Source: Deinococcales bacterium (GTDB lineage Bacteria > Deinococcota > Deinococci > Deinococcales > JAAFIG01). From it: 64,000 nt of DNA. The translations under genes and the position numbers were made by a program. A model generated the notes under the pieces. The model was given only the letters and a program-made list of their open reading frames with translations, was not told the DNA's origin and did no database searches. The stretch spans positions 64,784 through 128,783 of the forward strand of contig JANYHH010000077.1 in the NCBI GenBank assembly GCA_025359505.1. The letters are read 5' to 3'. Below are positions 1 through 64,000 of this stretch, in pieces. How positions within the stretch are numbered: position 1 is the first letter of the stretch; each line of letters opens with the position of its first letter.

Positions 1-2
1 GG

Positions 3-707
3 TTGATTACAGAACTGCTGTATGAACTCAAAAGTGGCAAGGAAGCCACCGTCTACGTCGCACAAGGCAACGAGGGCTTGGTCGCCGTCAAACTCTACGT
101 GGACTCGAGGGTGCGGAGTTTCAAAAACGACGCGATTTACCGCGAGGGCAGATTCATCGCCGATGGACGGATGAAAAAAGCGATTGACCAGCGCAGCGAC
201 ACGGGGGTCAGCGCCCAGAATTACCTCTGGGTCGGCGAGGAGTTCTCGCAGCTCCACGCGCTTTACAACGCTGGATTACGCAGCCCCAAACCGCTGGCGC
301 ACGAGGGCGGCGTGATCCTGATGGAGTTCGTCGGTGACGAATCCGGCGCAGCCCCAAGGGTCGCCGACGCACGCTTAACTCCGAGCGAAGCCGAGATCGC
401 CTTCGACCAGTCGCTCGAGCAATACGCGATCATGCTCAGCATCGGACGGGTTCACGGCGATTACAGCACCTTCAATTTGTTGTGGTGGAACGGGCAATGC
501 GTGGTGATCGACTTCCCACAGGTCATCAAAGTCAAAGAGAACCCGAGCGCCAGCGGCATTTTGGAGCGCGACATTCAAGGGCTGTGCCGCACGTTCAGGA
601 CGTTTGGGATCAAGAAGGACTGGGTAGCGGCATTGGCGACGATCAAAGCCAAAGCTCGAGCCTTGCAAACGACCATGTTGCCCGAGGAATTGGAGCAGAT
701 TCTGTGA
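3..707 (+). CDS. RIO-type serine protein kinase (5' end cut by window edge)
   Basis: ORF runs from the window edge. LKSGKEATVY...VAVKLY nucleotide-binding region and an HGDYSTFNLLW catalytic-loop-like segment are typical of the RIO1 family. Confidence 0.75.
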   Translation: MITELLYELKSGKEATVYVAQGNEGLVAVKLYVDSRVRSFKNDAIYREGRFIADGRMKKAIDQRSDTGVSAQNYLWVGEEFSQLHALYNAGLRSPKPLAHEGGVILMEFVGDESGAAPRVADARLTPSEAEIAFDQSLEQYAIMLSIGRVHGDYSTFNLLWWNGQCVVIDFPQVIKVKENPSASGILERDIQGLCRTFRTFGIKKDWVAALATIKAKARALQTTMLPEELEQIL

Positions 708-1624
708 GGCTCGAGTCCACGGAGTCCATTAGCGTTAGGCTAGCTCGAGCCGAGGACTACGAAGCCATCGCAGCGCTGCACAACGCAGATAACGAACCTC
801 ACTTTCAGGCTTCGTTGGAACAGTTGCAGAAGTCCGACACCAAGAACACGAGTGGCGGGCGCACCGTGGCAATCCAAAACGGACGCGTGGTTGGAACTTT
901 GGAGTTTTGGCTCTGGGCGGAAGTCGAAGCCTACCGGATCGGCATTCACACCGTTCAAGGCGCGATTGGTGCGAACGCAGCCACGCAATTGATAGTTGAT
1001 CTCGAGCGCCGCATAACCAACGCCAAGCGACTGCTGGCCACGGTTCGGAGCGACTTCCTCAGCGGCGCTCAGCACCTGCAATCTGGCTTCAGCGAAGTCT
1101 TCCGGTCGTTCGGGGCGAATCTCGAGCTGGCGAACTTTGACAGCGGGCGTGTCAGTCACCTCGAGACCGATTTGCTCGAGCAAGGTATCCGAATTATTCC
1201 CCGTAGCGAATGGCTTGCGCCCGATGCAGACGCGCAACTCGAGGCGATTCAGCTCGAGGACAACGCGGACATCCCCAGTTACGAACCGGTCGTGACGAAC
1301 GAAATGGATTTCAAAACCCGTAAGTTGCTCGAGCCGTTCTGGGTGGCGCTGTCTGGCGACGAGTGCGTCGGTTTCGTCAGCTTGGACGGCAAGCCCGATC
1401 AGCCCGTGATTCACTTCGACTCCTCGGCGGTCTCGAGGTCGCAGCGCAATCGAGGGATCGGACTGGCGCTGGCCGCTCGAGCGGTCGCGTGGGCGAAAAC
1501 GCAAGGGTTTGCTGAAGTCAACGACGGCGGCGCAAAATCGAATCCCGCACACATCAAGATTCTGGAGCGTTTAGGGTTTGAACTCGAGCCAGACTGGGTG
1601 ACTTATGAAAAAGTCCTTGGATGA
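704..1624 (+). CDS. GNAT family N-acetyltransferase (two-domain)
   Basis: GTG at 704 overlaps the upstream stop as GTGA. The C-terminal RSQRNRGIGLALAARAVAWAKTQGF matches the GNAT acetyl-CoA motif A. I trimmed the 482 ORF because its first part lies out of frame inside the kinase gene. Confidence 0.8.
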   Translation: MRLESTESISVRLARAEDYEAIAALHNADNEPHFQASLEQLQKSDTKNTSGGRTVAIQNGRVVGTLEFWLWAEVEAYRIGIHTVQGAIGANAATQLIVDLERRITNAKRLLATVRSDFLSGAQHLQSGFSEVFRSFGANLELANFDSGRVSHLETDLLEQGIRIIPRSEWLAPDADAQLEAIQLEDNADIPSYEPVVTNEMDFKTRKLLEPFWVALSGDECVGFVSLDGKPDQPVIHFDSSAVSRSQRNRGIGLALAARAVAWAKTQGFAEVNDGGAKSNPAHIKILERLGFELEPDWVTYEKVLG

Positions 1625-1660
1625 ACCCTCGCAACAAGACGCACTGCCGCAATACGCATT
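1570..1660 (+). repeat. junction repeat A1 (GNAT 3' end plus nucleotidyltransferase 5' start)
   Basis: The 33-nt core 1583-1615 (ctcgagccagactgggtgacttatgaaaaagtc) is identical to 2445-2477. Flanks are degenerate but alignable. Confidence 0.9.
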
Positions 1661-2486
1661 CGCAGACCGATTAGCAACTGCGCTCAGTCTGGACTCGAGG
1701 GTGCGAGCGGTCTGGCTCGAGGGTAGCTTGGGACGTGGGCAGGGCGACCGGCACTCAGACGTGGATTTGCACGTTGCACTCAAAGCCGAAGATTTGCCCG
1801 AGTTTCGCACGGGATTCGAGACGACCCTGAATCGCGTGGGACGCGTGCTGAGACACCACGTACTGTTCGGTGGAACGATGGTCGGCACGTTACTGTTAAA
1901 CAAAGACGATCAACTGATCGCGCTCCAAACTTGGCTCAGCGACGCATCAAGCCTCGAGATCAACGAAAGACGCGCTCGTGTGCTGTATGACGCTGACCAG
2001 ACCGTGCGACTCGTCCCCGGGAGCGCCACCAAACCGGATGAAATTCGGCAATCGTTGCACGTGGAAATCACTTATTTCTGGACTTTGTTTTCGACGCTCC
2101 CCGCGATTGAGCGTGGCGAATTGCTGTCCACCGCGCATCGCGTACACCTTTTAGCAAATCAGGTCATCCTCGTGGCTTCGCTCGGGCGAGGCAGAACTCG
2201 AGATGTGGGCGATTGGCGGTTGAACGAACTGCTGTCCGAGCATGAACGCCGACATCTCGAGCAAATCGTGCATCTGCCAGAGCTTTCGCAGCCCGCGATT
2301 ATCGCCGCGCATTACAGACTCGCCGCTTTCATGCGCGAAATTGGACAAGCAGCCAGCAGCGCTTGGCAAGGCGAGTATCCCGCAACGCTCGAGCGTGCGG
2401 TGATGACGCACGTATCCAGGGATTTAGAGCGGATGGGGTTCGCACTCGAGCCAGACTGGGTGACTTATGAAAAAGTCATCAAATGA
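1605..2486 (+). CDS. nucleotidyltransferase domain protein (Pol-beta superfamily, aminoglycoside-NT-like)
   Basis: GSLGRGQGDRHSDVDLHV matches the G[SG]-x-D-x-D nucleotidyltransferase motif. The C-terminal 19 aa copy the upstream GNAT C-terminus (see repeats). Confidence 0.7.
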   Translation: MKKSLDEPSQQDALPQYAFADRLATALSLDSRVRAVWLEGSLGRGQGDRHSDVDLHVALKAEDLPEFRTGFETTLNRVGRVLRHHVLFGGTMVGTLLLNKDDQLIALQTWLSDASSLEINERRARVLYDADQTVRLVPGSATKPDEIRQSLHVEITYFWTLFSTLPAIERGELLSTAHRVHLLANQVILVASLGRGRTRDVGDWRLNELLSEHERRHLEQIVHLPELSQPAIIAAHYRLAAFMREIGQAASSAWQGEYPATLERAVMTHVSRDLERMGFALEPDWVTYEKVIK

Positions 2487-2522
2487 AACCTCTCAAAATG
2501 TTGCTGCCCGAAAGACTCGAGC
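2432..2522 (+). repeat. junction repeat A2 (second copy, at nucleotidyltransferase 3' end)
   Basis: Perfect 33-nt match to A1. The following ATGAAAAAGTCATCAAATGAAACCTCTCAA resembles the NT gene start ATGAAAAAGTCCTTGGATGAACCCTCGCAA. Confidence 0.9.
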
Positions 2523-2578
2523 GGATTTTGTGAGTTCGCAAGATGTAAGTTTCAGTGTGAAAGGAGTACATTTTCACC

Positions 2579-2803
2579 ATGAGCCAACTTGAACTTGAAA
2601 AAGCATTGTTCGATTTACCGCGTGAGGCCCGCGCCGAACTCGCCCATCGCCTGATCTCGAGCCTTTCAGAGCCGAGCGAAGCAGAGTCTGATGCGTTGGT
2701 GGCGCGGGTTGCGTTGAAACGATTCGAGGAAATTAAATCAGGAAAAGTTCAAGGTATTTCGGGAGAGGAAGCGTTACAGCGTGCCAAACAAGCGCTACCG
2801 TGA
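2579..2803 (+). CDS. putative addiction-module antitoxin component
   Basis: 74-aa acidic protein with GGAG-like RBS upstream. Its N-terminus LELEKALFDLPREARAELAHRLISSL resembles the putative addiction module component family. It overlaps the downstream toxin gene. Confidence 0.6.
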   Translation: MSQLELEKALFDLPREARAELAHRLISSLSEPSEAESDALVARVALKRFEEIKSGKVQGISGEEALQRAKQALP

Positions 2804-3095
2804 CACTTTTCACCCAGAGGCATTGGAAGAACTGATCCAAACCGAGTTGTACTACGCGGATGTTTCACCGTCATTGGCGAGTGATTTCTTCAACGAGATT
2901 GAATCAGCGCTCGAGTACCTACGTGAATTTGCCGACGCTGGACAAATCATTCATTCGCGCAACGTGCGAAAATCGTCACTGAAACGCTTTCCCTACAACG
3001 TTGTTTATGTACTCGAGAACGATGAAATTTTCATCCTCGCTGTCGCGCATCAGCGCAGTCAACCGCTGTATTGGTTCAGAAGATTGAGCAACTAA
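2781..3095 (+). CDS. RelE/ParE family toxin
   Basis: 104 aa with a GTG start overlapping the antitoxin. The FPYNVVYVLENDEIFILAVAHQRSQP C-terminal pattern is typical of ParE/RelE plasmid-stabilisation toxins. Confidence 0.7.
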   Translation: MPNKRYRDTFHPEALEELIQTELYYADVSPSLASDFFNEIESALEYLREFADAGQIIHSRNVRKSSLKRFPYNVVYVLENDEIFILAVAHQRSQPLYWFRRLSN

Positions 3096-3096
3096 G

Positions 3097-3609
3097 GTGT
3101 CCAGAATCATTTACCGCTTGAAGTCTTTCACTTCACTGTGCTCGCTTGCACTGGCAATGTTGATGATCGCCCCTCTCGCCATCTCTCGAGCGAGTGGCGG
3201 CAATCTCGAGTCGAGCGTCTTTGACCATCCCTACTTCAAGGGTCGCACCGTGCCGTGTCTGACGGCGTATTTGAATACGATGCAACCCAAACTGACTGGC
3301 TCGAGAACGTTTTTCATTTCGACCGTGCAAATGTTTGAAGCCGGTTCAGCCAACGCAAACGTCTTTGACCCGTCCAGAAACCACATCATGCTGTGGGAGC
3401 CGTACAGCAGTCCAGCGTGCGACGACCTGCGCCACTCGAGGCGCGATTGGGATTTGCAGCGCGACGTGCGCGACGACACTCGGGGCAGCACCTACCTGTT
3501 GGGGCGGCTCGAGGCGAAGTCGTTGAAGGCGCGGTGTCTGGCTGGGGATCACGTGACGATCAGGTTGAAGGCGGGGCGCTTCGTCAACGCTAAAATCGAA
3601 CGTCGCTAG
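3097..3609 (+). CDS. hypothetical secreted protein
   Basis: 170-aa ORF with a hydrophobic N-terminus (LCSLALAMLMIAPLAISRASG). No recognisable domain. Confidence 0.4.
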   Translation: MSRIIYRLKSFTSLCSLALAMLMIAPLAISRASGGNLESSVFDHPYFKGRTVPCLTAYLNTMQPKLTGSRTFFISTVQMFEAGSANANVFDPSRNHIMLWEPYSSPACDDLRHSRRDWDLQRDVRDDTRGSTYLLGRLEAKSLKARCLAGDHVTIRLKAGRFVNAKIERR

Positions 3610-4158
3610 TTAAGTTGCCAGTATCCCCGCGTAAATCCCCTCGAGCGTCAGGGTCGCCCCAATGCATGGCACATCGAACGATCCCGTCCCCTCGAGCAAA
3701 GAAAAGCGCCATTCCGCCCCGTCCCTCGCGTAAACCATCACGAAAGCGCGATCTTGGCGCAGCAGCACGTAGCGTTGCACCGACGGAATTTTCAGGTACT
3801 CCTCGAGCTTTTCTCTAACATCCACGTCTTCGGTGCTGTCCGACAGCACTTCAAACACCGCGCAAGGCGCTTGGATCATGTATTCGTCGGCATCGTCCTC
3901 GCAAGTCACCACCACATCCGGGTAGCGATAGCGGTCATTTGGCACGCGCATTTTGACGACGGTGAAGAACACGTCGCAACCTCGTGCCTCTGCTGCTTGG
4001 TCGAGCAGTCGCACCAGTCGCCCAACCAGCCGATTATGCGTTTTCGTTTCGCCTTTCATCGCGTGCATCACGCCATCAACGAACTCGTGTCGCTCTAGCG
4101 CTAACTTCTCAGCTCCGAGATACTGCTCTGGCATCATCCGCACGTCTGACATCATCAA
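3610..4158 (-). CDS. Uma2 family endonuclease (DUF820)
   Basis: HEFVDGVMHAMKGETKTHNRLVGRL...RYPDVVVTC...APCAVFEVLSDST...EKLEEY matches the PD-(D/E)xK Uma2 pattern. Confidence 0.8.
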   Translation of the reverse strand: MMMSDVRMMPEQYLGAEKLALERHEFVDGVMHAMKGETKTHNRLVGRLVRLLDQAAEARGCDVFFTVVKMRVPNDRYRYPDVVVTCEDDADEYMIQAPCAVFEVLSDSTEDVDVREKLEEYLKIPSVQRYVLLRQDRAFVMVYARDGAEWRFSLLEGTGSFDVPCIGATLTLEGIYAGILAT

Positions 4159-5275: not shown

Positions 5276-5723
5276 ACCTACCGAAACCGTGAAATCCAAC
5301 TTGCTCGAGTTGCTCGAGGAAACCTTTGAAACCCCACGAGGGATTTACTTGGATCGTTCCAAAGGCGGGTTGTTCACGACGCTCGAGGGGATCAGTAGCG
5401 ATACCGCTTCAAGCGAGTCTGGGGCGCAGCGCAGCATCGCGGCGCATGCGGAGCACCTGCGGGTGTACGTCGCGGCGCTACACGGGTACATGAATGGCGC
5501 GACGGGCAAGACCGATTGGGAGGCGAGTTGGGCGACGCACAAAGTCTCGAGCCTCGAGTGGGAGATGTTGCGAGCGGCACTACAACGCGATTATCTGGCG
5601 CTCAAAGCTGACCTCGAGCAGATTCCCAATGGTGACTTGCGCTTGGCGGAGGGAATGGCGATTTTGGCGCATACGGCGTATCACTTCGGCGCGATTCGGC
5701 AATTGCTGTTGGGGATCGAGTGA
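5268..5723 (+). CDS. DinB superfamily protein
   Basis: 151 aa with IAAHAEHLRVY...ILAHTAYHFGAIRQL His-containing helices. The start overlaps the upstream stop (ATGTCTGA). Confidence 0.6.
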   Translation: MSEPTETVKSNLLELLEETFETPRGIYLDRSKGGLFTTLEGISSDTASSESGAQRSIAAHAEHLRVYVAALHGYMNGATGKTDWEASWATHKVSSLEWEMLRAALQRDYLALKADLEQIPNGDLRLAEGMAILAHTAYHFGAIRQLLLGIE

Positions 5724-11147: not shown

Positions 11148-12104
11148 GTGCTGAGCATTCGCGCTTTTGAGCCAGACCGCGATCTCGAGGGGCTGGTCTG
11201 GCTCGAGAACGGGCTGCACAGCTCGAGTCTGACCACCGACGAGTTGCAAATCAGAGACTTGGCTCGAGAGAGTGATCTGGCATTCATGCGGCTGGTGGCG
11301 CTGTGGGATTGGCAGATCGTCGGCGCAATTGAGGCGACGCAGAAACCGTGGCCGTGGCAGGATCGGGCTGAAGTCAGGGTCGGCGTACTACCCGATCATC
11401 GCGGGCTGGGCATCGGACGGGCACTGGTCGCGGCGCTCGAGACGCAACTGGGTGAGGCTGGTGGGCAGATGATGCTGGCATACACGGGTGAATTTGACTT
11501 TGGTTACAACCATTTCCTGTGGCGCGTGGGTTTTCTAGAAGCGTTTCGGGGCTACCCGCAGTATTTGCCCCTACAGACTGTCCGCCTCGAGCAGATCAGC
11601 GTCGATTGGGGGCGGATCGCTGCGGCGGGCGTAGAGTTTCGCACGCTGTCGCAAGTGCGCTTCGAATGGGACTGCGCCCAAAAACTTTACGACTTGTACG
11701 TTCAACTCGAGGCGGACGTGCCCAGAGTGGACGAGGTAATCGCACCAAAATCGTTTGAAGATTTTTGCACCGACATCTTCGACTCGCCCTCGAGCCTGCC
11801 GGACGGCGTAACGCTAGCGGTGCAAGTGCGGAGCTGGGGTATGGAGTACGTCGGTTGCAACATCCTTTACCGCGACGACTCGGGGTTGGTGCTGCACAAC
11901 GGTCTGACCGGCGTCAGGCGCGACCTCAGGGGCTTGGGCTTGGCGGCAGCCCTCAAATACAACGGCATCGAGTTTGCCGCCAAAGCGGGTTACGCGGGGA
12001 TCACGTCGTTCAACGCCCGCGACAACCACGCGATCCTGAACCTCAACGCCAAATTCGGTTTCGAGCGTGGGGCCGCAACCCTCGAGTGGCGCAAATCATG
12101 GTGA
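11148..12104 (+). CDS. GNAT family N-acetyltransferase (two-domain)
   Basis: It carries HRGLGIGRALVAALETQL and RRDLRGLGLAAALKYNGIEFAAKAGY, which are two acetyl-CoA motif A copies. Confidence 0.8.
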   Translation: MLSIRAFEPDRDLEGLVWLENGLHSSSLTTDELQIRDLARESDLAFMRLVALWDWQIVGAIEATQKPWPWQDRAEVRVGVLPDHRGLGIGRALVAALETQLGEAGGQMMLAYTGEFDFGYNHFLWRVGFLEAFRGYPQYLPLQTVRLEQISVDWGRIAAAGVEFRTLSQVRFEWDCAQKLYDLYVQLEADVPRVDEVIAPKSFEDFCTDIFDSPSSLPDGVTLAVQVRSWGMEYVGCNILYRDDSGLVLHNGLTGVRRDLRGLGLAAALKYNGIEFAAKAGYAGITSFNARDNHAILNLNAKFGFERGAATLEWRKSW

Positions 12105-19235: not shown

Positions 19236-20426
19236 TTACAAGCGCCGCAGCATCAACGCCAGACCATTCGCGCCGCCCATGCACAGGCTCGCCACGCCCG
19301 TTTCCAAACCGCGCTGCTGCAAAGCGTGCAGCAGCGTCACGACGATTCGCGCTCCGCTGCACCCGATCGGATGCCCGAGCGCGACCGCCCCGCCGTTGAC
19401 GTTGACGCGCCCCAAATCGACCCCGAGTTCGCGGGTCACGGCCAGCGCTTGCACCGCGAACGCCTCGTTGAACTCGAATAAATCAACGTCAGCCAGTGTC
19501 ATGCCCAAATTCTCGAGCAGCTTGCGCGTCGCGGGCACGGGTGAGCGCGTGAACCACTTGGGTTCCACGCCGCTGGTGGCGTAACCGACGATCTGGGCCA
19601 GCGGCTTCAAACCGCGCTCGAGGGCGGCCGATTCGGACATCACCAGCAGCGCGGCCGCGCCATCGTTGATGCTCGGCGCGTTGCCGGGCGTGACGCTGCC
19701 GCCGTCTTTGAAGGCGCTTTTTAATTTACCCAGTGACTCGAGGCTGCTGTCGCGGCGCGGCCCCTCGTCGGTGTCGATCGTCACCGATCCGGCTCTGGTG
19801 GTGACGGTCACGGGCGCGATCTCGGCCGCGAAACGCCCAGCGTCGATGGCAGCAATGGCGCGGCGGTGCGACATCAGCGCGAACTCGTCCTGCTCGAGCC
19901 TGCCGATGCCCAATTCCGTGGCCGTCATCTCGGCCGCGTCACCCATCCGCCAGTGTTCAACAGCGCAGGTCAGCCCGTCGTGCATGTTGGCATCGCGCAG
20001 CTCCTGATGACCAGCCCGCACACCCTCGCGCTGCCCGAACAGCAGGTACGGGGATCGGCTCATGCTTTCCATACCGCCCGCGATCACGGCGCTCGCGTCC
20101 CCAGCCCGCACCGCGCTGGCGGCCAGCATCAGCGCTTTCATGCCACTGCCGCACACGACGTTGACCGTCGTCGCGCCGCTGGCGACGCTCAATCCCGCAC
20201 CGAGCGCCGCTTGCCGCGCCGGGTTCTGTCCGACGCCCGCTTGGATCACGTGACCCATGTACGTCTCTTCGATCAGTTCAAAGTCCAGCCCAAGGTCGAT
20301 CCCGCTGCGCTCGAGCACCGCACGAATGGCGACCGTTCCGAGCTGCGGGGCGCTCAGGTCTTTTAACCCGCCCAGAAAGCGTCCAATCGGCGTGCGAGCA
20401 GCGCTAACGATCACGGCTTTGTGCAT
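19236..20426 (-). CDS. acetyl-CoA C-acetyltransferase (thiolase II)
   Basis: [17 protein letters not shown] start, VCGSGMKAL active-site Cys, and C-terminal [18 protein letters not shown]. The ORF was trimmed from 20561 to ATG 20426. Confidence 0.9.
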
Positions 20427-20478
20427 ACTGAGCAGTCTAGCAGTGCGACCGCCCAGTCTCGAGTCACGTAGAGGGAAA

Positions 20479-21118
20479 ATGACGACGTTGTTGTTCATCG
20501 TGATCTGGCTGGGAGCGCTGATTGCCACCTGCGTGCCCGTCGTCCCCGCGACGCTTATCATTTGGGGGGCGGCGCTGCTGCACGCGGTCTTGACCGGGTT
20601 TCAGCCGATCACTTGGGGCTTGCTCGCGGGTTTGGGCGCACTGGCGATCGCGGCGATGCTGGTCGATAATCTCGCAGCCGCATGGGGCACAGCCAAATTC
20701 GGTGGCTCGAGCGCGGCCGCTTGGGGCGCACTGGCGGGTGGTCTGGTCGGCTTGCTGCTTGGGCCGCTCGGGTTCGTGATCGGGCCGTTTCTGGGCGCGG
20801 TAAATAGCAGAGCTGATCTTGACGCGCAAATCGGTGCTCGAGGCGGTGAAAAGCGGCCTCGGCACGCTGCTCGGGTTGCTTGGCGGGATCGGTGCGAAGC
20901 TGGTGATTCACCTGACGATGGGCGTCTTTGTGCTGGTGCGAATTTGGAGCGCTTCAATCGGTTGCCAGACAAATGCTCGAGACTCGAGCGGAGACGCCAT
21001 TTCAGTGGAGGGTTTGAAACCGCTCCACTCGAGCTTGCTGTCTTTTGAGACCACAGGTCGATCAATCACATCAGGCGTTGCAACCACTCGCCGAACAGTC
21101 CTCGCTCCGCCTCACTGA
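20479..21118 (+). pseudogene. DUF456 membrane protein with apparent 1-nt insertion in A-run 20802-20804
   Basis: Frame A gives [30 protein letters not shown]...GPFLGAV and then nonsense. Frame +1 continues IAELILTRKSVLEAVKSGLGTLLGLLGGIGAKLVIHLTMGVFVLV, a typical DUF456 C-terminus. The 3' end is uncertain. Confidence 0.5.
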
Positions 21119-40122: not shown

Positions 40123-40180
40123 GGGTGTGTCCTTTCAAAACTCGAGGGATCTCAGGTGAAATGCAAAAGTGATGCGGGCG

Positions 40181-41041: not shown

Positions 41042-41126
41042 GCAGCCTCCTCGAGCGCTATGGGCGAGATTTGACTAACTCGAGGGTCTAGCTCGAGCGG
41101 GATTGAACGGTGCGGGATTCGAGTCT

Positions 41127-42541: not shown

Positions 42542-42673
42542 AGGGATCTCCTGACCGAGTTGCCAACGAAGTCCATCCAGTCGGCATGGGCAAGGTTGAG
42601 GGTGATGATCTCGCTCGCACTGCTCGTGAGCGCAGGGCGAAGGCTCGAGAGTAGAGCAGGCAATCCAGCGCGG

Positions 42674-43984
42674 TCAGTTCAGGTTGCTGATGTCCAACTC
42701 GGCTGTTCTCGAGCCTTGCCAGACCAACCTGACCTTCTTGGGTTGCACGCCGCTGGGGACATCAATCAGCGCCCGCACCTGCACTTCTTGATTGTACTGC
42801 AAATCAATCGACTCGAGGTTCGCGTCGCGGCTTGCGCGGTAGATCCAGTCCGATTTGCGGCTCTCAATGCGGTCTTGGTCGATGAAGGAAATTGCACCGT
42901 AACCGCCGTAAATGCCCGTGGGTGCTTTGGCGATGTTCTTGACGGTGAAATACAGCACCAGCCAGCGTCCACCCTCGGGCGGGGCTGAACCGTCGAACCA
43001 TGGCTCGGTGGAGTAGATCACCTTGTCGAGCCTAAAATTGGTGACCGCCGGGTAGTAAACGCCGATCTGCGCTGGAAATACTGTCAGGGCACTCGAGCCG
43101 TCGGTCACAGTCGGGTCAGCGAACGGCGTAGGCAGCGGCGCGATTTTGCCGCGCAAGTCGTAGCGCCAGACCGCGTTGTTGCTGTCGTCCACGATCAACT
43201 TGGGCAAGCTGACATCGCCGTCCACGACGATGCGCGTGAAAACAACGACCTTCTGCGCGGGTTTGAGGCTGAGGCTGACGGGTCGCAGTGTGCCCTGTTC
43301 GTACCAGTAACCGTCACCAGACACGTTGCTGTTCTTACTGTCCACGCCGGTAAACCGAATGCTCGAGCCGTCGACAGAGCGTTCGGTCTTGTTGGGGTTC
43401 TGGATCGTCAGCGAGATCACCAGCGCTTTTTTGTCGGGCGCGACGATGTAATCGTTTTTGCTCGGGCTGTCGTAGAGGTAATTGCCGACGCTCCACTCGA
43501 GCTTGGTGATGGAATAGTTCAGTGCGCCTTCGCCGCGAAACAGCGTGTAGGTCTGACCCAGCACGCCCTCGCCGCCGCTCAGTTGACTCGCGCCCTGAAC
43601 GCTCGGGGCCGTCATTGGCATCGCTGGCGTGGGGTTGGTGATCGTCACCGTCGTTCCAGCGAGGCTCGAGGCCAGCCCGAGACCTTTGACGACCACCGCG
43701 ACACTTGCGTAGGCGATGTCTTTTTGGATCGTCACCGCGACCTTGGCGGTCTTGGCGTTGCGCGTGAAAGTCGCGGCTTTACCGGCGAAGTCGAGGCTGA
43801 CGCTCGCGCCGAGCGCGGCCGCCAAGGGCTTGCTCGAGAGTGCGAGCTTGCCAGTGACGGTGATGCCTGCCACGCTGCTGCTTTTACTACCGAAGACGAC
43901 TTTGTACGTGCCTTGCGCGAGCGCGATGGCCGCCGCGAGCGTGAGGGCGAAAACAAGTGTACCGCCGAGTTTTTTCGCGTTCAT
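42674..43984 (-). CDS. secreted protein: stalk-like N-module plus two DUF4352-like beta-sandwich regions
   Basis: Signal peptide ALTLAAAIALAQG. N-module ITVTGKLALSSKPLAAALGASVSL. Then KKALVISLTIQNPNKTERSV and RWLVLYFTVKNIAKAP, which resemble the DUF4352 core strand. Confidence 0.55.
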   Translation of the reverse strand: MNAKKLGGTLVFALTLAAAIALAQGTYKVVFGSKSSSVAGITVTGKLALSSKPLAAALGASVSLDFAGKAATFTRNAKTAKVAVTIQKDIAYASVAVVVKGLGLASSLAGTTVTITNPTPAMPMTAPSVQGASQLSGGEGVLGQTYTLFRGEGALNYSITKLEWSVGNYLYDSPSKNDYIVAPDKKALVISLTIQNPNKTERSVDGSSIRFTGVDSKNSNVSGDGYWYEQGTLRPVSLSLKPAQKVVVFTRIVVDGDVSLPKLIVDDSNNAVWRYDLRGKIAPLPTPFADPTVTDGSSALTVFPAQIGVYYPAVTNFRLDKVIYSTEPWFDGSAPPEGGRWLVLYFTVKNIAKAPTGIYGGYGAISFIDQDRIESRKSDWIYRASRDANLESIDLQYNQEVQVRALIDVPSGVQPKKVRLVWQGSRTAELDISNLN

Positions 43985-46492: not shown

Positions 46493-47683
46493 ATGCTGAA
46501 CAACGCTTACTCCGTGGCCATCACGGCTCCACCCGCCGGCGACCTCACTCCATTCGTCGATGCACTGGCGCAAACACTGAACGCCCAAAACCCGCAAATC
46601 GTGCAGTTGCTCGAGCGCTTGCAGGCCGGGCCCGTGACCGTCACCAAACCGATTCCGGAGGACGCAGCGCGGCAGCTCGCGCAGCAACTCGAGCGGCTTG
46701 GCTTCAAAACGCAGGTGCGCGTCAGCGCCCAGCCAGCGCCGTCCACCAGCCAAGCACTGCCCCTCAGCAGCGATCTCGTCGCGCCGCCCGCGCCGCCAGC
46801 CCGCAAGCGCTCGAGCCTCAGCAACCGCATTTTGCTCAGCACATTGATCCCGCTGTTGGTGCTGATCGCGGCGATCCTCGGGTTCACCGCACTGAGCTTG
46901 CCGAGCACGGTCAGGCAACTGATTCTCGAGGGCGCGGATCAACTGGCCATCGCGGTTGGCAACTCAATCGAACTGAACAATCCGGGGGGTGAGAACCGCC
47001 GCTTGACGTTGCTGACCCAACAACCCAAGGTCTTTTTCGTGGCGGTCAAACTGCCCGATGGCTCAGCGCTGTTTCGCGCCAAAAACGCCGATGACGAGAT
47101 CATCGTTCGCACGCCACTGACTGAATTCATGGACGCCAATCCAGCGGGCGGCACGTACTCGTGGACGGACAACCGCGCTGCCGCCTTTGCGACGGTCATC
47201 AAGCAGATGCAGTCCTCAGGGCAAGCGACGGACGCATCTGTCAAATCAGTGCAGCAAAACGTTGATCGCACCGTGTCGTCGGCTGGGCAAGTGACGATTC
47301 TCGAGGTCAGGCGCATTGGCTTTAAAGAAATTGGCGGCGTGCGCCAAGTCGTGCCGATCAATCAAGCGGACTTCGTGGTCAGCGTTGGCGTGATCGCCAA
47401 TGACAGCTTGAGTATTCGCAATAACTTCCTACTGATCTTCGGTGTGGTCGCGCTGCTGGCGACCGTCGTGATCGTTGCCATCACCTCGGCCGCACTGCGC
47501 CGCGTGGTGCAACCGATTTTGGAGATGTCAAAAATCGCGGATCGCATCAGCATGGGTGAAATTGATCAACCCGTACCGAACTTTGGCAACGACGAATTGG
47601 GTGATCTGTCTCAGTCGATTGATCGCCTGCGAATCAGCGTCAAGGTGCTGTTAGAAAGGATGGTCAGCAAACGCAATTCTTAG
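46493..47683 (+). CDS. membrane sensor ending in a HAMP domain, with no output domain
   Basis: Soluble N-domain, TM1 (ILLSTLIPLLVLIAAILGF), a roughly 200-aa extracytoplasmic region, TM2, HAMP (RRVVQPILEMSKIADRISMGEIDQPVP...DELGDLSQSIDRLRISV), then the stop codon. Confidence 0.7.
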   Translation: MLNNAYSVAITAPPAGDLTPFVDALAQTLNAQNPQIVQLLERLQAGPVTVTKPIPEDAARQLAQQLERLGFKTQVRVSAQPAPSTSQALPLSSDLVAPPAPPARKRSSLSNRILLSTLIPLLVLIAAILGFTALSLPSTVRQLILEGADQLAIAVGNSIELNNPGGENRRLTLLTQQPKVFFVAVKLPDGSALFRAKNADDEIIVRTPLTEFMDANPAGGTYSWTDNRAAAFATVIKQMQSSGQATDASVKSVQQNVDRTVSSAGQVTILEVRRIGFKEIGGVRQVVPINQADFVVSVGVIANDSLSIRNNFLLIFGVVALLATVVIVAITSAALRRVVQPILEMSKIADRISMGEIDQPVPNFGNDELGDLSQSIDRLRISVKVLLERMVSKRNS

Positions 47684-47744
47684 CGCCGTCCGCTTTCTTT
47701 GTTGCCCGACGAAACATCTGCACAGCACGATCTGAAAGGTCAAT

Positions 47745-48854
47745 ATGAAAAAGTGGATTGCAACCCTAGGTATCCTGAGCCTCGCCGTCAGCAGCGCCCA
47801 AAAACCCTTCGATGTCGGCATTATCTTCAGCAACTCTATTAAGAACGACCGCTCATTCAACCAACGCACGTTTGAGGGTTTGCAGCGAGCCTCGAAAGTA
47901 TTTGGCAACGGCGTCAAAGAGTTTATTCCGAGCGATCCAACGCAAATCGAGGTTGGGATTCGCAAAATGGTCAGCGAAGGCGTGCAACTGATCGTGGGCG
48001 TAGGCTTCGCCAGTGAATCGGCGATCAGCGCCGTCGCCAAAGATTCGCCGAACACCAAGTTCGCGGTGATTGACGCTGTGCCTCAGGGCAGCAACACCAC
48101 CGGCTTGGTGTCTCGTGAGCAGGAAGGCTCCTACCTCGTTGGCTACATCGCTGGGACATCCTCAAGCACCGGCGTGGTCGGTTTCGTCGGCGGTATGGAC
48201 ATTCCACTGATTCACAAGTTTGAAGCCGGTTATCGCGCTGGCGTGCTGCGGGCCTGCCCAAGCTGCACCGTCAAAGCCGAGTATGTCGGCACGACCCCTT
48301 CGGCGTGGGACGACCCGGCCAAAGCCAAGGAGATCGCCGCTAAGCAAGTCGCGGCGGGCGCTGACATCATCTACGCGGCCGCTGGAGCATCGGGCAACGG
48401 CGCTCTGGATTTCGTCAAATCTCAACGCTGCCTGAACACCAACGATTTACCCAGCGGCATGCGTTTCAAAAGCACCAATATCGCCGCCAACGTCCCCAAG
48501 CCAGCCGCGTACTCGAAGGTGTGCCAAAGCACTTCGCGCCCGGTGTTTTTCATCGGCGTGGATTCAAACCAGAATTACCTCGGTGACACCGATAAAAATC
48601 CAAAAACGCTCAACGTCGTTTTGACTTCGATGGAGAAGCGCGTGGACAACGCTGTTTATGCCATCGTTCAGGCGTTCTCCAAAGGAGCGGCTTGGCGCAG
48701 CGGCGCGGTCGAGTTTGGACTTAAAGAGTTTGGCGTTGGTTACGCCGTGGACGAGTACAACAGCGCACTGATTCCCAGCGGTCTGATTGCGAAAATCGCA
48801 CAGATCAAACAAATGATCATCAGCGGCAAAATCGTCGTGCCAACCAAACGCTGA
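47745..48854 (+). CDS. BMP family (PnrA/Med-like) substrate-binding lipoprotein-type protein
   Basis: FDVGIIFSNSIKNDRSFNQRTFEGLQRA...LIVGVGFA...KFAVIDAV...GVVGFVGGMDIPLIHKFEAGY matches the basic membrane protein family. Confidence 0.85.
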   Translation: MKKWIATLGILSLAVSSAQKPFDVGIIFSNSIKNDRSFNQRTFEGLQRASKVFGNGVKEFIPSDPTQIEVGIRKMVSEGVQLIVGVGFASESAISAVAKDSPNTKFAVIDAVPQGSNTTGLVSREQEGSYLVGYIAGTSSSTGVVGFVGGMDIPLIHKFEAGYRAGVLRACPSCTVKAEYVGTTPSAWDDPAKAKEIAAKQVAAGADIIYAAAGASGNGALDFVKSQRCLNTNDLPSGMRFKSTNIAANVPKPAAYSKVCQSTSRPVFFIGVDSNQNYLGDTDKNPKTLNVVLTSMEKRVDNAVYAIVQAFSKGAAWRSGAVEFGLKEFGVGYAVDEYNSALIPSGLIAKIAQIKQMIISGKIVVPTKR

Positions 48855-48870
48855 AGCAGGAACACCCAAT

Positions 48871-48904
48871 AATGAACGGCCACCTGAGCAGGTGGCCGTT
48901 CATT
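48871..48904 (+). terminator. strong hairpin terminator after the BMP gene
   Basis: aatgaacggccacc-tgagca-ggtggccgttcatt has a 14-bp perfect stem followed by a weak T-tract (atttac). Confidence 0.65.
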
Positions 48905-49022
48905 ATTTACGAGACGCCGATTGAGCGTTAGAATGACTCGAGCACAGCGCCCAGCATCTGTGCTCGAGTCCAGCTCGCAGCGTTCAGTCCACTCCGGCTC
49001 AGAAATTGCGGTGATTGATTCC

Positions 49023-52047: not shown

Positions 52048-53022
52048 ATGAAGAAACGCATTGCACTGGCGGTACTCGGCGCGGGCTTGGCAGTTGGAGT
52101 GGCGTCGATGGTGAACGCGCAAAAAGCCATGCCAGAAGTCAGCATCATCCTCAACTGGTTCGCCGAGCCACCGCACGGCGGCTACTACGCGGCCGTGCAA
52201 GACGGTCTGTACGAGAAAGCGGGCGTTAAGGTCAAGCTGATTCCCGGCGGGCCAAATGTCGCGGGGTACAGCCTCGTATCGACCGGCAAAGCCGAATTCG
52301 CGCAGATGGACACGGCCGGCATTCTGCAATCACGCGAGCAGGGCCTGCCCGTGGTCGGCGTCTTCGCCGATCTGCAACTCTCGCCGCAAGTGCTGATGTT
52401 CCATAAATCCAACCCCGTCAAAGGCTTCGCGGATCTAGCCGGACGCCAAGTCGCCGTCACACCGGGCGCTCCGTACTGGGATTACATCGTCGCTAAGTAC
52501 AAACTCGAAGGCAAAGCCCAGCAAGTCAATTACACGGGTCAGGTCGCCACGTTCCTCAACGACAAAAAGCTCGTCAGTCAAGGCTACGCAGTCGCGGAAC
52601 CGTACACCATCGAACAGGCCGGCGGCGACATCGATTATCTACTGGTCAGCGATTCGGGGTTCAGCCCTTACGGAGTCTTGGGCACGAACGAGGATTTCTT
52701 AAAAAATAACCGCGCCGTCGTAAAAGCCGTGGTTGAAGCCAGTCAAGAAGGCTGGAACCGCTACGTCGCCAACCCCGCCAAATACGGCGACGCGATCAAA
52801 GCCGACAACAAAGATTTGACGCCGGGTTTCCTCGCATGGAGCGGCAAAGCCGTCGTGCCATTCGCCACCGGCAAAGATGGGCAAGTCAAAAAATACGGTT
52901 TCGGCACGATGCAACTCAGCCGCTGGAACGAGATTTACAAGGCGCTGAAAGCCGTCGGGATCTTAAAGAAGGATCAAGTCGTGCAGCAGGCCTTCAACAC
53001 GACCTTCATCAAAAAGCCATAA
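52048..53022 (+). CDS. ABC transporter substrate-binding protein (NMT1/THI5-like, SsuA/ThiY type)
   Basis: Signal peptide. ILNWFAEPPHGGYYAAVQDGLYEKAGVKVKLIPGGP matches the NMT1/THI5-like pattern. Confidence 0.85.
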   Translation: MKKRIALAVLGAGLAVGVASMVNAQKAMPEVSIILNWFAEPPHGGYYAAVQDGLYEKAGVKVKLIPGGPNVAGYSLVSTGKAEFAQMDTAGILQSREQGLPVVGVFADLQLSPQVLMFHKSNPVKGFADLAGRQVAVTPGAPYWDYIVAKYKLEGKAQQVNYTGQVATFLNDKKLVSQGYAVAEPYTIEQAGGDIDYLLVSDSGFSPYGVLGTNEDFLKNNRAVVKAVVEASQEGWNRYVANPAKYGDAIKADNKDLTPGFLAWSGKAVVPFATGKDGQVKKYGFGTMQLSRWNEIYKALKAVGILKKDQVVQQAFNTTFIKKP

Positions 53023-59959: not shown

Positions 59960-60543
59960 CTCGAGGGTTTCAGCGCAATTGGACTCTGCTTGCTCGGGTC
60001 GCGCCCAAATTTATCGGCGTAAAAAACTTTCAACAATGCGAAATCCGCCTCGAGATCGCCGGTCGGCTGAATGTACGCGCCGATGCCGATTTCCTTTTTG
60101 CGCCAGTCCACGAAGCCCAGCCCGATTGGCACATTGGCTTTCAACGCCATGTAGTAAAAGCCGCTGCGCCAGTATTCGGCGCGGCTGCGCGTACCCTCGG
60201 CAGCGATAATCAGCGTGATCTCTTCGCGCTCGCGGATCATCGCCGCCACCGCTTCCACGAAGTTGCTCGAGCCACGACGATCTAATGGGATTCCACCGAG
60301 TTTCAACATCACAGGCCCCAGCAAGCCTGTGAACAGCTCTCTTTTACCAACCCAGTTCATTTTGGAACCCGTTGCCCACGCCCAGAGGATCACCGGCAAA
60401 AAATCGTGGTTGCTGGTGTGCGGGTAGCCAACCGCGACGAACTTCTTCCCCGGCGCTGGCTCGAGGATGGCTGACCACCCGAGCCATTTGAGCAGGGTGG
60501 TTGCGACGCGTTGACGCGCCGTGACTGGAACGTGCTGGTGCAT
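59956..60543 (-). CDS. lysophospholipid (1-acyl-sn-glycerol-3-phosphate) acyltransferase family protein
   Basis: HX4D motif (HTSNHDF) and the AAEGTRS motif. Confidence 0.8.
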   Translation of the reverse strand: MHQHVPVTARQRVATTLLKWLGWSAILEPAPGKKFVAVGYPHTSNHDFLPVILWAWATGSKMNWVGKRELFTGLLGPVMLKLGGIPLDRRGSSNFVEAVAAMIREREEITLIIAAEGTRSRAEYWRSGFYYMALKANVPIGLGFVDWRKKEIGIGAYIQPTGDLEADFALLKVFYADKFGRDPSKQSPIALKPSS

Positions 60544-60624
60544 GGCGGCAGATTACCTCGAGCCAGCGCGTCGCAGGGTGACGGCGTGGTCTTCGCACGG
60601 TTGCTTTCTGACTTTGCGGCTATC

Positions 60625-61857
60625 ATGGGAACTGTGAAACGGCTCTTCGCCATGACAGCACTCACCCTCGGCATCACTGCCTTAGTGCTAAGCCATTCCT
60701 TCTCGAGCGCCAGCGCACCAGTGAAAATCACCTTCTGGCAGTACCTCGCGCCGGAAGCGGGCGGGCAGGCCTTGCTGAGCTTTGCGGCTGAGTTCAATAA
60801 ATCTCAGTCGCGCTACGCCGTCGAGATCGTCGACGCGGGCGATTTCAAAACCGTGCAAATCAAGCTGATTAACGCGCTGCGTTCCGGCACGGGCTTACCG
60901 AGCATCTCAATGGTGGACAACGCGTTCTTCACGCGGCTGGCGCTCGGTGGCACGCTCGAGCCGCTGGATGCGTTGACGGACACACTGCCTAAAGCGACTG
61001 TGGATGACTTTCAGCCCGTGTTGTGGGAATACGGCGAGGTCAAAGGGCAGCGCTTGGGCTTGCCGTGGGCGGAGAGTACGCTGGTGAACGCTTACAACGC
61101 CGATGCGTTCAAGCAAAAGGGTTTGTCCGCGCCGCGCACTTGGGAGGATTTCGCCAAGGCCGCCAAAGCGCTGACGACGCGCAGCTCCAAGGGCGCGGTC
61201 TTTTTCATCGACGCGTGGATCTTCGCGTCAATGGTCTCGAGCCGAGGTGGGGACGTGCTGACGGACGACAATAAACCCGCGTTCGACAGCGCTGCTTCAA
61301 AAGAGGCGTTACAGTTCATGTTCGATCTGACCAAGGGCGGGCAGGCGCTGGTCAGGCGCTTTGACGAGGCGAACTTCGCGGTGATCGACTGGGTACGCAC
61401 CAAAACCTTCATGGTGACTGTGCCAACCAGTGCGTACCCATTTGTCAAAAACAATGTCTCGTTCACGGTCGGCGCAACGCCGATGCCGGGCAGGACGCTG
61501 GCGGGCGAATCGCAGTTGGTGATCCCGAAAGCCGCCAGCGACGCCGAGCGCGACGGCGCGTTTGCGTTTTGGGAGTTTCTGACAAAGGTCGAAAACGTGG
61601 CGAAGTTCTCTAAACAGTCGTATTACTTGCCCGTGCGCCGCAGCGCGATTAAGCTCTTGGGCGAGACCGCCAACGATCCCGTGATGAAAGCGGGTCTCGA
61701 GGCGCTGAGCACCGCCTACAACCCGCCGCACCTGATCGAGTACGGCGCGTGGCGCACGATTTTGGAGGCGCAGCTCGAGCGTTCGCTCAAGGGCGGCGTT
61801 GATCCGAAAGTGGCCTTGAGTGAGGCGCAACGCCAGATTCTCTTGTACAAACCCTGA
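60625..61857 (+). CDS. sugar-type ABC transporter substrate-binding protein (orphan)
   Basis: Signal peptide. ITFWQYLAPEAGGQALLSFAAEFNKSQ matches the family-1 SBP pattern. An alternative GTG start lies at 60634. Confidence 0.8.
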   Translation: MGTVKRLFAMTALTLGITALVLSHSFSSASAPVKITFWQYLAPEAGGQALLSFAAEFNKSQSRYAVEIVDAGDFKTVQIKLINALRSGTGLPSISMVDNAFFTRLALGGTLEPLDALTDTLPKATVDDFQPVLWEYGEVKGQRLGLPWAESTLVNAYNADAFKQKGLSAPRTWEDFAKAAKALTTRSSKGAVFFIDAWIFASMVSSRGGDVLTDDNKPAFDSAASKEALQFMFDLTKGGQALVRRFDEANFAVIDWVRTKTFMVTVPTSAYPFVKNNVSFTVGATPMPGRTLAGESQLVIPKAASDAERDGAFAFWEFLTKVENVAKFSKQSYYLPVRRSAIKLLGETANDPVMKAGLEALSTAYNPPHLIEYGAWRTILEAQLERSLKGGVDPKVALSEAQRQILLYKP

Positions 61858-62864: not shown

Positions 62865-62865
62865 A

Positions 62866-63636
62866 TCACCAGACGTTGTTGGTCAGCACGCCGCCGTCCA
62901 CAGCGAGGGTCGCGCCCGTAATCCAACGTGCGGCTGGGGACAGTAAGAACAGCACGGCGTCCGCCACGTCGTCGGGTTGCCCCAAACGCTCGAGCGGGCA
63001 GGCGGCCTGCCAGCGCTGCACCCCTTCGGGCCAAGCGGTCGCTAGACCCGGCGCGTCGATCAGTCCGGGCGCGACGGCGTTGACGCGGATGCCGTGGCGT
63101 CCCAGCTCTAAGGCTGCCGAGCGCGTGTGCATCAGCACGGCTGCTTTTGAGGTCGCGTAGTGGCTGTGACCTAGCGCAGGTTGCAAGCCTTCAATCGAGG
63201 CAATGTTGACGACTGCTCCCCCACCGCTCGAGATCATCAGCTTGGAGGCTGCCGCCGTCATCGCCATCACGCCGAGCGTGTTGACGCGCAGCATCTCCGT
63301 GCGGTCTTCGGACGTTTGCTCGAGCAGCATCCGCACGGGTTGAATGCCCGCGTTGTTGACCAGTCCCGTCAGCCCTGCAAACGCACTCATGGCTTCAGCG
63401 CACAGCCGCTCCGCATCGCGCTCGACATCGCCCTGCACGATCACGACCCTCGAGCCGAGCGCGGCAGCCAACGTCTCTACACTCGAGCGGTTGCTGGTGC
63501 AGTGCAGCGCCAGATTCGCGCCCGCTTCATGTAGGCGACGGGCGATGCCCGCGCCGATGTTGCCGCTCGAGCCAGTGACGAGAATCGTTTGATTGGTCAG
63601 GTTGAGCAGGTCAGTGACGCTTGGGGGCATGGGCAT
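62866..63636 (-). CDS. SDR family oxidoreductase (FabG-like)
   Basis: TGSSGNIGAG, NNAG, and YATSKAAV (YxxxK). Confidence 0.9.
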   Translation of the reverse strand: MPMPPSVTDLLNLTNQTILVTGSSGNIGAGIARRLHEAGANLALHCTSNRSSVETLAAALGSRVVIVQGDVERDAERLCAEAMSAFAGLTGLVNNAGIQPVRMLLEQTSEDRTEMLRVNTLGVMAMTAAASKLMISSGGGAVVNIASIEGLQPALGHSHYATSKAAVLMHTRSAALELGRHGIRVNAVAPGLIDAPGLATAWPEGVQRWQAACPLERLGQPDDVADAVLFLLSPAARWITGATLAVDGGVLTNNVW

Positions 63637-63695
63637 ATTTTGACACCGTTTCGAGTCTCGAGCGTCGGTTGGCGGATGGGCAACACTGTTATTAT

Positions 63696-63729
63696 GTGAA
63701 TAGATTCACGATTATCGTGTTCGTGAACA
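63696..63729. promoter_or_regulatory. two adjacent palindromes (candidate operators) in an AT-rich divergent region
   Basis: GTGAAT-ag-ATTCAC (63696-63709) and TGTTC-gt-GAACA (63718-63729), between the SDR gene and the 63910 ORF. Confidence 0.35.
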
Positions 63730-63909
63730 TTTTATTGAAATGAGAAGCATCATGACTTGGCAATAAGAATCTAATTCAGGTAACCCCGCTACTGAAACGA
63801 ACGTTTGTCAAATGTGTATACTCAAATGACCGCAAAAAAGTTTTACAGTCATCCACAGCACCCGAGTCATCCTCGGGCTTTCAAAAAGCGCTGATCCAAC
63901 GGAGCCTCC

Positions 63910-64000
63910 ATGAACCCACTCGAGCCGCAACGCTCGCTGCCCACCCCAAGCGAAGACCTCAACCTCTGGCACGCATTTCTCGCACAGCTCGAGGACACGC
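63910..64000 (+). CDS. hypothetical protein (3' end cut by window edge)
   Basis: ATG 63910 follows a GGAG RBS at 63901. Only 30 codons are visible. Confidence 0.3.
   Translation, partial: MNPLEPQRSLPTPSEDLNLWHAFLAQLEDT

Follow-up and report, generated by a model that had tools for sequence, protein, structure and literature searches.

The palindromic hexamer CTCGAG is hyper-abundant in a 64,000-nt stretch of DNA from an uncultured Deinococcales bacterium (contig JANYHH010000077.1, positions 64,784 to 128,783; GenBank assembly GCA_025359505.1), hereafter the window. There are 416 copies in the window, which has a guanine-plus-cytosine (GC) content of 59.2%, and the excess is a clade-wide trait of uncultured Deinococcales. 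CTCGAG looks like a second, independent case of a highly iterated palindrome (HIP), outside the cyanobacteria, with a different, shorter word and a higher density. We propose that it is a HIP-type element, the recognition site of a sequence-specific DNA-handling protein, and that its accumulation is driven by uptake or recombination of kin DNA. We give this reading a probability of roughly 40%.

A preliminary description of the window had counted about 25 CTCGAG by eye in nt 1-3000 and called the word hyper-abundant in genes and spacers. Exactly 25 are present there, its site coordinates are right within 1 nt (104, 414, 655, 710, 744, 1001 and 1121), and it understated the excess: 100 dinucleotide-preserving shuffles of the window gave a mean of 24.3 copies (standard deviation 4.8, maximum 36) versus the 416 observed. 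The observed/expected ratio is 16.5 under a first-order model and 24.7 against a background with the sites masked. A maximal-order Markov expectation (330 copies) is not informative, since CTCGAG itself makes up most of the 5-mer signal. In the ranking of all hexamers in the window CTCGAG is first, two-fold ahead of the rest, and the runners-up GCTCGA, TCGAGC, TCGAGG and CCTCGA are one-base shifts of it. The cyanobacterial core word CGATCG stands at 0.6 times its expectation. The sites extend over the whole window, with 16-35 per 4-kb bin, and 58 of the 62 called genes contain at least one.

1-64000: the CTCGAG field, 416 sites with a mean spacing of 154 nt and a median of 105 nt

The excess is not an effect of codon or peptide usage. 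CTCGAG is denser in non-coding DNA (10.8 per kb, 85 sites) than in coding DNA (5.9 per kb, 331 sites). The 62 genes were called with an iterated codon-usage model and checked with Pfam; one call, 740-1552 (-), was replaced by a GNAT gene at 704-1624 (+). By codon phase, the genes hold 211 sites read as CTC-GAG, 38 as xCT-CGA-Gxx and 83 as xxC-TCG-AGx. A synonymous shuffle, which permutes synonymous codons within each gene and keeps both protein sequence and codon usage, predicts 55, 2.7 and 10, respectively. The enrichment is therefore 4- to 14-fold in every phase, and the total of 332 compares with 68 ± 7 (maximum 92), a ratio far from 1 under codon and dipeptide control. Shuffling the codon order gives 28 copies. 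Together, the dinucleotide, codon-order and synonymous shuffles rule out a codon or dipeptide origin of the excess. The examples that had been offered for the three phases check out:

1583-1588 (+): phase-0 site, CTC-GAG, Leu-Glu, in the GNAT gene 704-1624
3185-3190 (+): phase-1 site, xCT-CGA-Gxx, Ser-Arg-Ala, in gene 3097-3609
11222-11227 (+): phase-2 site, xxC-TCG-AGx, Ser-Ser, in gene 11148-12104

CTCGAG has reshaped proteins. Leu-Glu is the most over-represented dipeptide in the window, with 295 occurrences versus 112 expected from composition, and CTCGAG spells 72% of these pairs, versus 10% predicted from codon usage elsewhere. Leu-Asp is depleted (58 versus 102 expected), as are Val-Glu and Ala-Glu. 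The mirror word GAGCTC, which encodes Glu-Leu, does not occur at all in the window (16 expected), and a general affinity between CTC and GAG codons is therefore not the cause.

The same excess is found throughout the relatives of the window genome. Relatives were found by a thiolase scan with one genome per GTDB species, and 80 loci were compared.

19236-20561 (-): thiolase gene, the ortholog anchor, with 6 CTCGAG

The 17 best relatives, with 58-73% amino-acid identity in the thiolase, are 16 uncultured metagenome-assembled genomes (MAGs) labelled ‘Deinococcales bacterium’ and one labelled ‘Deinococcota bacterium’ (L002). Glacier-fed streams and other fresh waters are their main sources, and their GC contents range from 44 to 63%. 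In all 17 loci CTCGAG is the top hexamer, with 4.1-6.9 copies per kb and observed/expected ratios of 7-70, and its density does not rise with GC. The 17 loci and the window pooled (282 kb, hereafter the pooled clade DNA) contain 1,626 CTCGAG versus 46 expected. Every relative has sites in each of the three codon phases. Leu-Glu is at 2.0-2.7 times expectation in all of them, versus 1.0 in Deinococcus, and 48-83% of the Leu-Glu pairs are spelled CTCGAG. Apart from one weak neighbour in one locus (L004), the relatives' loci have only the thiolase gene in common with the window, and the trait is therefore genomic rather than local. The excess is thus not limited to the window; every relative's locus is enriched.

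Other lineages avoid the word. Three CTCGAG were found in the Deinococcus loci versus 27 expected (P = 6e-9), and only 2 of 87 Deinococcus Leu-Glu pairs use it, although CTC and GAG are favoured codons there. In a Thermus brockianus locus, CTCGAG occurs 12 times versus 29 and TCGA 15 times versus 90 under synonymous shuffling. This locus (L202, AP025593.1, 1797301-1818488) has a TaqI-type methyltransferase gene adjoining gyrB, and its six-fold TCGA deficit is what a TaqI host should show. Nine acidobacterial MAG loci (L029-L036 and L050; 146 kb), seven of them labelled Blastocatellia and four from the same glacier-stream surveys, contain no CTCGAG versus 28.8 expected (P = 3e-13); CGCGCG is often their top hexamer. 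Deinococcus, Thermus and the co-occurring Blastocatellia thus avoid CTCGAG, and in the other phyla among the 80 loci it does not exceed 2.4 times expectation.

Comparison of orthologs provided insights into the turnover of the sites. Sites in the window were mapped onto orthologs for the thiolase only. Each clade member has 5-11 CTCGAG in this gene and Deinococcus has none. Some sites are common to most members, while others are private and lie where the relatives differ in amino acid; private sites of the window encode Leu-Glu versus Ile-Ala or Lys-Ala in other members. Leu-Glu of the clade stands opposite Leu-Asp, Ala-Glu or Met-Lys in Deinococcus; lineage-specific sites arose by amino-acid replacement of this kind (LD, AE or MK to LE). 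Rates of turnover were taken from pairwise alignments of five relatives (L008-L011 and L013) that are collinear over 6-16 kb with ~84% DNA identity; genes in the relatives were called as simple long open reading frames (ORFs). CTCGAG is conserved in 956 of 1,157 cases (83%), versus 41% for phase-matched hexamers 6-12 nt away and 42% for all hexamers, and ranks 7th of 1,237 hexamers. Outside long ORFs it is conserved in 69% of cases versus 28% for other hexamers. Where Leu is retained, the third base of CTC is kept in 93% of cases inside the motif versus 60% outside; for GAG with Glu retained the values are 94% and 63%. The preliminary description had argued for a driver at the DNA level rather than peptide or codon selection, and the denser spacers, the enrichment in all phases and this retention of synonymous third bases support it. 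It had named methylation-linked repair, gene conversion and protein binding as candidate drivers without choosing among them.

The exchange of CTCGAG with its one-mismatch neighbours is strongly directional. For each of the six transition neighbours, 17-23% of the copies have CTCGAG at the aligned position (baseline for a specific single transition 3.8%, 95th percentile 13.6%); conversely, only 0.8-1.7% of CTCGAG copies lie opposite any given transition neighbour. If the system is at equilibrium, these values would place gains about 5-fold above and losses about 3-fold below baseline. The gain/loss ratio of ~15 is in line with the abundance ratio, and the scaled advantage would be ~ln 15, a pattern typical of a selection-like or conversion-like force and not of protection from mutation alone. 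In the pooled clade DNA, transition neighbours occur at 1.5-2.1 times and transversion neighbours at 0.6-1.35 times expectation, with no depletion. This neighbour excess is a mild decay halo, the opposite of the footprint of Vsr-type T:G repair. The three half-site positions behave alike in conservation and exchange and no neighbour is depleted, and the force therefore reads the whole hexamer. Segments shared and unshared between close relatives have the same density (5.6 versus 5.6 per kb), with no island effect. These observations show that the force works at the DNA level, or in any case not through protein, that it recognizes the hexamer as a whole and has a direction, and that it is weak at any one site and extends over a deep clade.

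The unit under this force is the hexamer itself. G precedes the motif (-1) in 48% of sites and C follows it (+6) in 44%, and the flanks are otherwise unconserved. The 8-mer GCTCGAGC occurs 70 times versus 88 expected from independent flanks; because it is no commoner than the flanks predict, the hexamer is the unit. Spacing is exponential, as for random placement (coefficient of variation 1.08 in the window), with only a 3-nt codon signal and no helical or longer local period, and regular local spacing or helical phasing was rejected. The near-background flanks, a commonest 10-mer with 21 copies and the exponential spacing also rule out a dispersed repeat or mobile element (repetitive extragenic palindromes, miniature inverted-repeat transposable elements or clustered regularly interspaced short palindromic repeats). 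A Chi-type recombination hotspot is ruled out because CTCGAG is its own reverse complement and cannot carry orientation. Distances of <20 nt between sites occur at about half the expected frequency. Among them only the 7-nt spacing is (mildly) over-represented, as a small peak with 14 cases pooled across the clade versus 0-8 for the others. It produces a doublet, CTCGAGNCTCGAG, which is a 13-bp palindrome:

5546-5558, 20976-20988 and 21173-21185: doublets with 7-nt spacing

Hairpin formation does not account for the sites in general. CTCGAG pairs had been reported as hairpin arms at two places in the window, and folding energies indicate that both hairpins are real (-23.4 kcal/mol with z -5.8 for the first, -26.6 kcal/mol with z -5.1 for the second):

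25166-25198 (+): hairpin with a perfect 11-bp stem and CTCGAG in each arm, between convergent genes, terminator-like
30103-30139 (+): hairpin with CTCGAG in each arm, directly downstream of the sugar-binding-protein gene 28749-30083

Stems of at least 9 bp were found in only 13 of 138 close site pairs, with no difference between genes and non-coding DNA. Most close pairs do not extend past the 6-bp self-complement, and hairpin formation was rejected as a general role. CTCGAG is dense in divergent promoter spacers too.

HIP1, the element that the preliminary description had named as the closest precedent, remains so, and the HIP-defining features open to test are present: a palindrome excess of more than 10-fold (in the window and the pooled clade DNA, with 7- to 70-fold in the 17 relatives' loci), occurrence in all reading frames and in non-coding DNA beyond the effect of codon usage, and conservation of sites above background sequence. 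HIPs have also been described by a periodic distribution over 10-90 kb; for CTCGAG, local spacing within 64 kb was analysed. Like HIP1 (GCGATCGC) and the alternate HIPs of cyanobacteria (GGGATCCC, TCGATCGA and CAGGCCTG), CTCGAG is a short GC-rich palindrome of unsettled function in 15- to 300-fold excess. It also resembles them in occurring in every reading frame of genes as well as in spacers, in being conserved between relatives and lineage-wide, and in resembling the site of a Type II methyltransferase. HIP1 sites are conserved between genomes (PMC5861425) and tied to methyltransferases (PMC4390886), and HIP1 boosts natural transformation in a way that depends on methylation (bioRxiv 10.1101/2024.09.10.611283; 10.64898/2026.06.24.733823). 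There are also clear differences. The strict definition of HIP1, a cyanobacterial host and a GATC/CGATCG- or GGCC-based word, does not cover CTCGAG, which is a hexamer rather than an octamer, has a Deinococcota host, and lacks both a GATC/CGATCG core and an 8-mer extension. CTCGAG reaches ~6 per kb, whereas HIP1 reaches more than one motif per gene in some cyanobacteria. Unlike HIP1, CTCGAG has a clear proteome footprint (Leu-Glu at 2-2.7 times expectation), and no cognate methyltransferase was found in the 282 kb of clade DNA. A full-text literature search of incomplete coverage found no report of CTCGAG over-representation or of CTCGAG under HIP terminology, and for Deinococcota only routine methylome lists that include the word. 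The earlier statement that no equivalent is described for CTCGAG thus holds provisionally. In the same search all 16 papers with the term ‘highly iterated palindrome’ dealt with cyanobacteria. To our knowledge, the density of CTCGAG described here is among the highest for such a motif.

CTCGAG also resembles the DNA uptake sequences (DUS) of Neisseriaceae and the uptake signal sequences (USS) of Pasteurellaceae. One of their defining features, the hyper-abundance of a single oligomer throughout a family-level clade, within genes as well as between them, is present for CTCGAG. All of these words occupy tolerant coding positions and spacers under a selection-like force with an effect on protein sequence. 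DUS/USS copies form inverted pairs at terminators, and a few CTCGAG pairs form terminator-like hairpins. For USS and DUS, molecular drive by biased uptake is an established process. They have a known or inferred uptake receptor and an extended flanking consensus, whereas CTCGAG has no extended flanks. Another comparison is RAATTY in Campylobacter, an abundant palindromic hexamer methylated by the orphan enzyme CtsM that serves as a self mark for transforming DNA. RAATTY is frequent mainly through the AT-rich genome, and we know of no description of a 25- to 70-fold excess or of proteome reshaping for it. The Dcm/Vsr system of Escherichia coli (CCWGG) is comparable in that methylation-linked repair alters how often a palindromic site occurs. 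Very-short-patch repair gives a modest excess and depleted T-containing neighbours, whereas CTCGAG is in 25- to 70-fold excess with T-containing neighbours at 1.5-1.9 times expectation.

As the target of the XhoI and PaeR7I restriction-modification systems, the same word shows the usual avoidance in Deinococcus, Thermus and Blastocatellia. Unlike them, the clade hoards CTCGAG while many other palindromes are near-absent. In the window, the near-absent palindromes (observed/expected) are GCGCGC (1/121), CGCGCG (1/124), TGCGCA (0/48), GGCGCC (0/44), CCGCGG (2/45), TCGCGA (2/40), GCATGC (3/38), CAGCTG (0/20), CTGCAG (1/20), GAGCTC (0/16), GACGTC (2/23) and TTCGAA (2/22). AGCGCT, the sole NGCGCN palindrome tolerated, is enriched 2.9-fold (71/25). 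The set of avoided palindromes varies between clade members. The avoidance in the window suggests very heavy restriction pressure.

In the proposed mechanism, the two-fold-symmetric CTCGAG would be read by a clade protein, probably a DNA methyltransferase that acts with a second protein recognizing the site in its methylated form. Two-fold-symmetric 6-bp words are targets of homodimeric or Type II-like DNA enzymes, and Deinococcus and Thermus are naturally transformable. Kin DNA bearing (methylated) CTCGAG would be preferentially taken up or recombined in natural transformation, and alleles with CTCGAG would displace alleles without it by molecular drive. Over time, such a drive could place the word wherever it is tolerated (Leu-Glu, Ser-Ser, x-Arg-x and spacers) and would shift amino-acid sequences toward Leu-Glu. 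A more specific version is held more tentatively still: CTCGAG may be a new methylated 6-bp self-DNA signature for uptake or recombination that evolved independently in freshwater and cryosphere Deinococcales, reached ~30,000 copies per genome (one per 150 bp) by a drive strong enough to alter protein sequences, and is restricted at the same site by sister lineages.

Several points weigh against drive by uptake or recombination. DUS and USS are asymmetric 9-12-mers at ~1 per kb, whereas CTCGAG is a 6-bp palindrome at ~6 per kb. We know of no sequence preference in the DNA uptake of Thermus or Deinococcus. Conservation together with raised gain is compatible alike with drive, biased repair and direct selection, and the gain and loss rates are unpolarised, assume equilibrium and come from ten non-independent pairs of the five genomes. 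The 282 kb of clade DNA revealed no gene for a methyltransferase, a restriction enzyme, a Vsr/MutH-like nuclease or competence; a regular-expression scan of it for N6/N4 and C5 methyltransferase catalytic motifs gave false positives only, and the Pfam annotation of the window genes contains neither a methyltransferase nor a competence gene. In a search for homologs of M.TaqI (query sequence confirmed against PDB 1AQJ), the 120 matches listed are TaqI orthologs with 56-98% identity, none flagged as belonging to the clade. The named matches among those listed come from Thermus, Anaerolineae, Armatimonadota and Fervidibacter, and none is Leu-Glu-rich enough.

Viral DNA provides a further point of this kind. 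A scan of viral contigs for three clustered CTCGAG found 120 contigs, mostly of high GC and with GAGCTC and GCCGGC raised too. Because these and like words rise together, most of the matches reflect codon bias. Some IMG/VR contigs with phage tail or head genes, however, have CTCGAG in all phases at 2-4 times the synonymous expectation, which is not expected from drive by uptake only. One of them (L198, IMGVR_UViG_3300010354_016671; 14 kb, 57% GC) has genes for a tape-measure protein and a tail protein, and its top hexamer is CTCGAG, with phase counts of 22/21/17. On a second viral contig (L185), it is the top hexamer in the first 9.7 kb of a 110-kb contig, with phase counts of 22/17/10. The viral contigs were chosen for their CTCGAG clusters; these two may be phages or prophages of CTCGAG-rich hosts.

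The main alternative, possible but rather unlikely, is methylation-directed biased mismatch repair (the Elhai ratchet), in which the intact methylated strand would steer mismatches inside or beside the site to CTCGAG, protecting sites and converting near-sites with no need for uptake. This model has been put forward for HIP1 (PMC4390886). It fits a Type II-like palindrome with lowered loss, raised gain and equal protection of all positions, and since it acts on any resident DNA it also fits the equal densities of shared and unshared segments and the CTCGAG-rich viral contigs. However, neither the 282 kb of clade DNA nor the M.TaqI search yielded a methyltransferase or nicking enzyme of the clade, and repair from an intact strand explains protection more easily than a 5-fold gain. 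The conservation of HIP1 has been argued to speak against continual neutral replenishment (Xu et al., PMC5861425). A Vsr-type version, with very-short-patch repair, is contradicted, since the T-containing neighbours are over-represented rather than depleted in the pooled clade DNA (TTCGAG/CTCGAA 1.89 times and CTTGAG/CTCAAG 1.46 times expectation; 1.16 and 0.92 times in the window).

Direct selection on each site is less probable. Here an abundant CTCGAG-binding protein would use the sites for nucleoid compaction, for replication or segregation, or to label a strand or self DNA in repair or defence. The density is near-constant at 4-7 per kb while GC varies by 19 points, as though the genomes kept to a target, and the sites are conserved in coding and non-coding DNA; a nucleoid role has been proposed for HIP1 (PMC5861425). 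On the other hand, the spacing is exponential (coefficient of variation ~1.0) with no helical or longer local period, the benefit per site among ~30,000 would be minute, and the plateau may be a saturation of tolerant positions, with 48-83% of Leu-Glu already spelled CTCGAG.

The other explanations fare much worse. Hypomutability alone, by which a bound protein or local repair would shield the site from mutation while gain stays neutral and copies build up passively, agrees with the strong site conservation and the ~3-fold lower loss per site. It is very improbable, since neighbours are paired with the motif at 0.17-0.23 versus the 0.038 baseline, indicating that at equilibrium gain would also be raised ~5-fold, and 3-fold protection alone is insufficient for a 25- to 70-fold excess. 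Still less credible is a role in RNA, with self-complementary CUCGAG affecting the stability, processing or termination of transcripts. The two strong hairpins at gene ends would fit it, but stems of at least 9 bp are as frequent in coding as in non-coding DNA and limited to the 13 of 138 close pairs, divergent promoter spacers are dense in sites, and Xu et al. saw no RNA-level role for HIP1 (PMC5861425). Finally, a by-product of composition, of codon-pair or dipeptide preference (Leu-Glu, Ser-Arg) or of a dispersed CTCGAG-bearing element has next to no probability: Leu-Glu codon pairs do make up half of the sites, and codon bias alone lifts CTCGAG, GAGCTC and GCCGGC together in high-GC phage contigs, but the dinucleotide, codon-order and synonymous shuffles yield 24, 28 and 68 copies versus 416 and 332 observed, non-coding DNA is densest, GAGCTC is absent, CTCGAG is the spelling of 72% rather than 10% of Leu-Glu pairs, and the flanks carry nearly no information, with no 10-mer above 21 copies.

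HIP1 has gone thirty years without explanation, and no case was known outside the cyanobacteria. Such a motif, spelled differently, in a second and unrelated lineage offers an independent test of a repair ratchet, an uptake or recombination signal and a nucleoid role. The set of genes that co-occurs with the motif in both phyla would be the prime candidate for the machinery. CTCGAG is also a case in which a force at the DNA level overrides constraint at the protein level: it is held over a 19-point GC range and biases amino-acid sequences. In practice, CTCGAG density could serve as a simple marker for binning contigs of the clade and for spotting foreign DNA.

The genes in the window have ordinary chromosomal functions, including a RIO kinase, a DinB-family protein, GNATs, homoserine kinase, the thiolase, ABC sugar transporters, a GH3 glycosidase and amidohydrolases. 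No tRNA was found in the 64-kb window. The GH3 gene was matched on Logan contigs from SRR20627842, and three further window proteins, including those of the genes at both window ends, had no match on record. The three longest site-poor stretches each span a gene for a periplasmic substrate-binding protein of normal GC:

47305-48936: longest CTCGAG-free stretch, 1,637 nt between site starts, spanning the Bmp/PnrA-type substrate-binding-protein gene 47745-48854
47745-48854: Bmp/PnrA binding-protein gene, 0 sites
52048-53022: NMT1/THI5-like binding-protein gene, 0 sites
28749-30083: SBP_bac_1 binding-protein gene, 1 site

A fourth binding-protein gene, 60511-61857, has 6 CTCGAG. High expression or recent acquisition may account for the site-poor genes.

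Several other genes were noted. Two large ORFs have no Pfam match, 35038-37569 (-; 843 aa) and 41127-42620 (-; 497 aa). Around them runs a series of probable secreted-protein or lipoprotein genes (37566-43984) with scant or no annotation. A ParE toxin gene lies at 2781-3095 (+), and a gene for a putative PD-(D/E)XK nuclease of the Uma2 family at 3610-4158 (-). In cyanobacteria, the phylum in which highly iterated palindromes were already known, Uma2 proteins are strongly expanded, although we know of no link between the two. Lastly, the GNAT gene 704-1624 ends in a 19-residue stretch (ERLGFELEPDWVTYEKVLG) that has 84% identity to the final 19 residues of the next gene, 1605-2486. The two genes are otherwise unrelated, and the duplicated C-terminal tail (1562-1621 and 2424-2480) has a CTCGAG in each copy.

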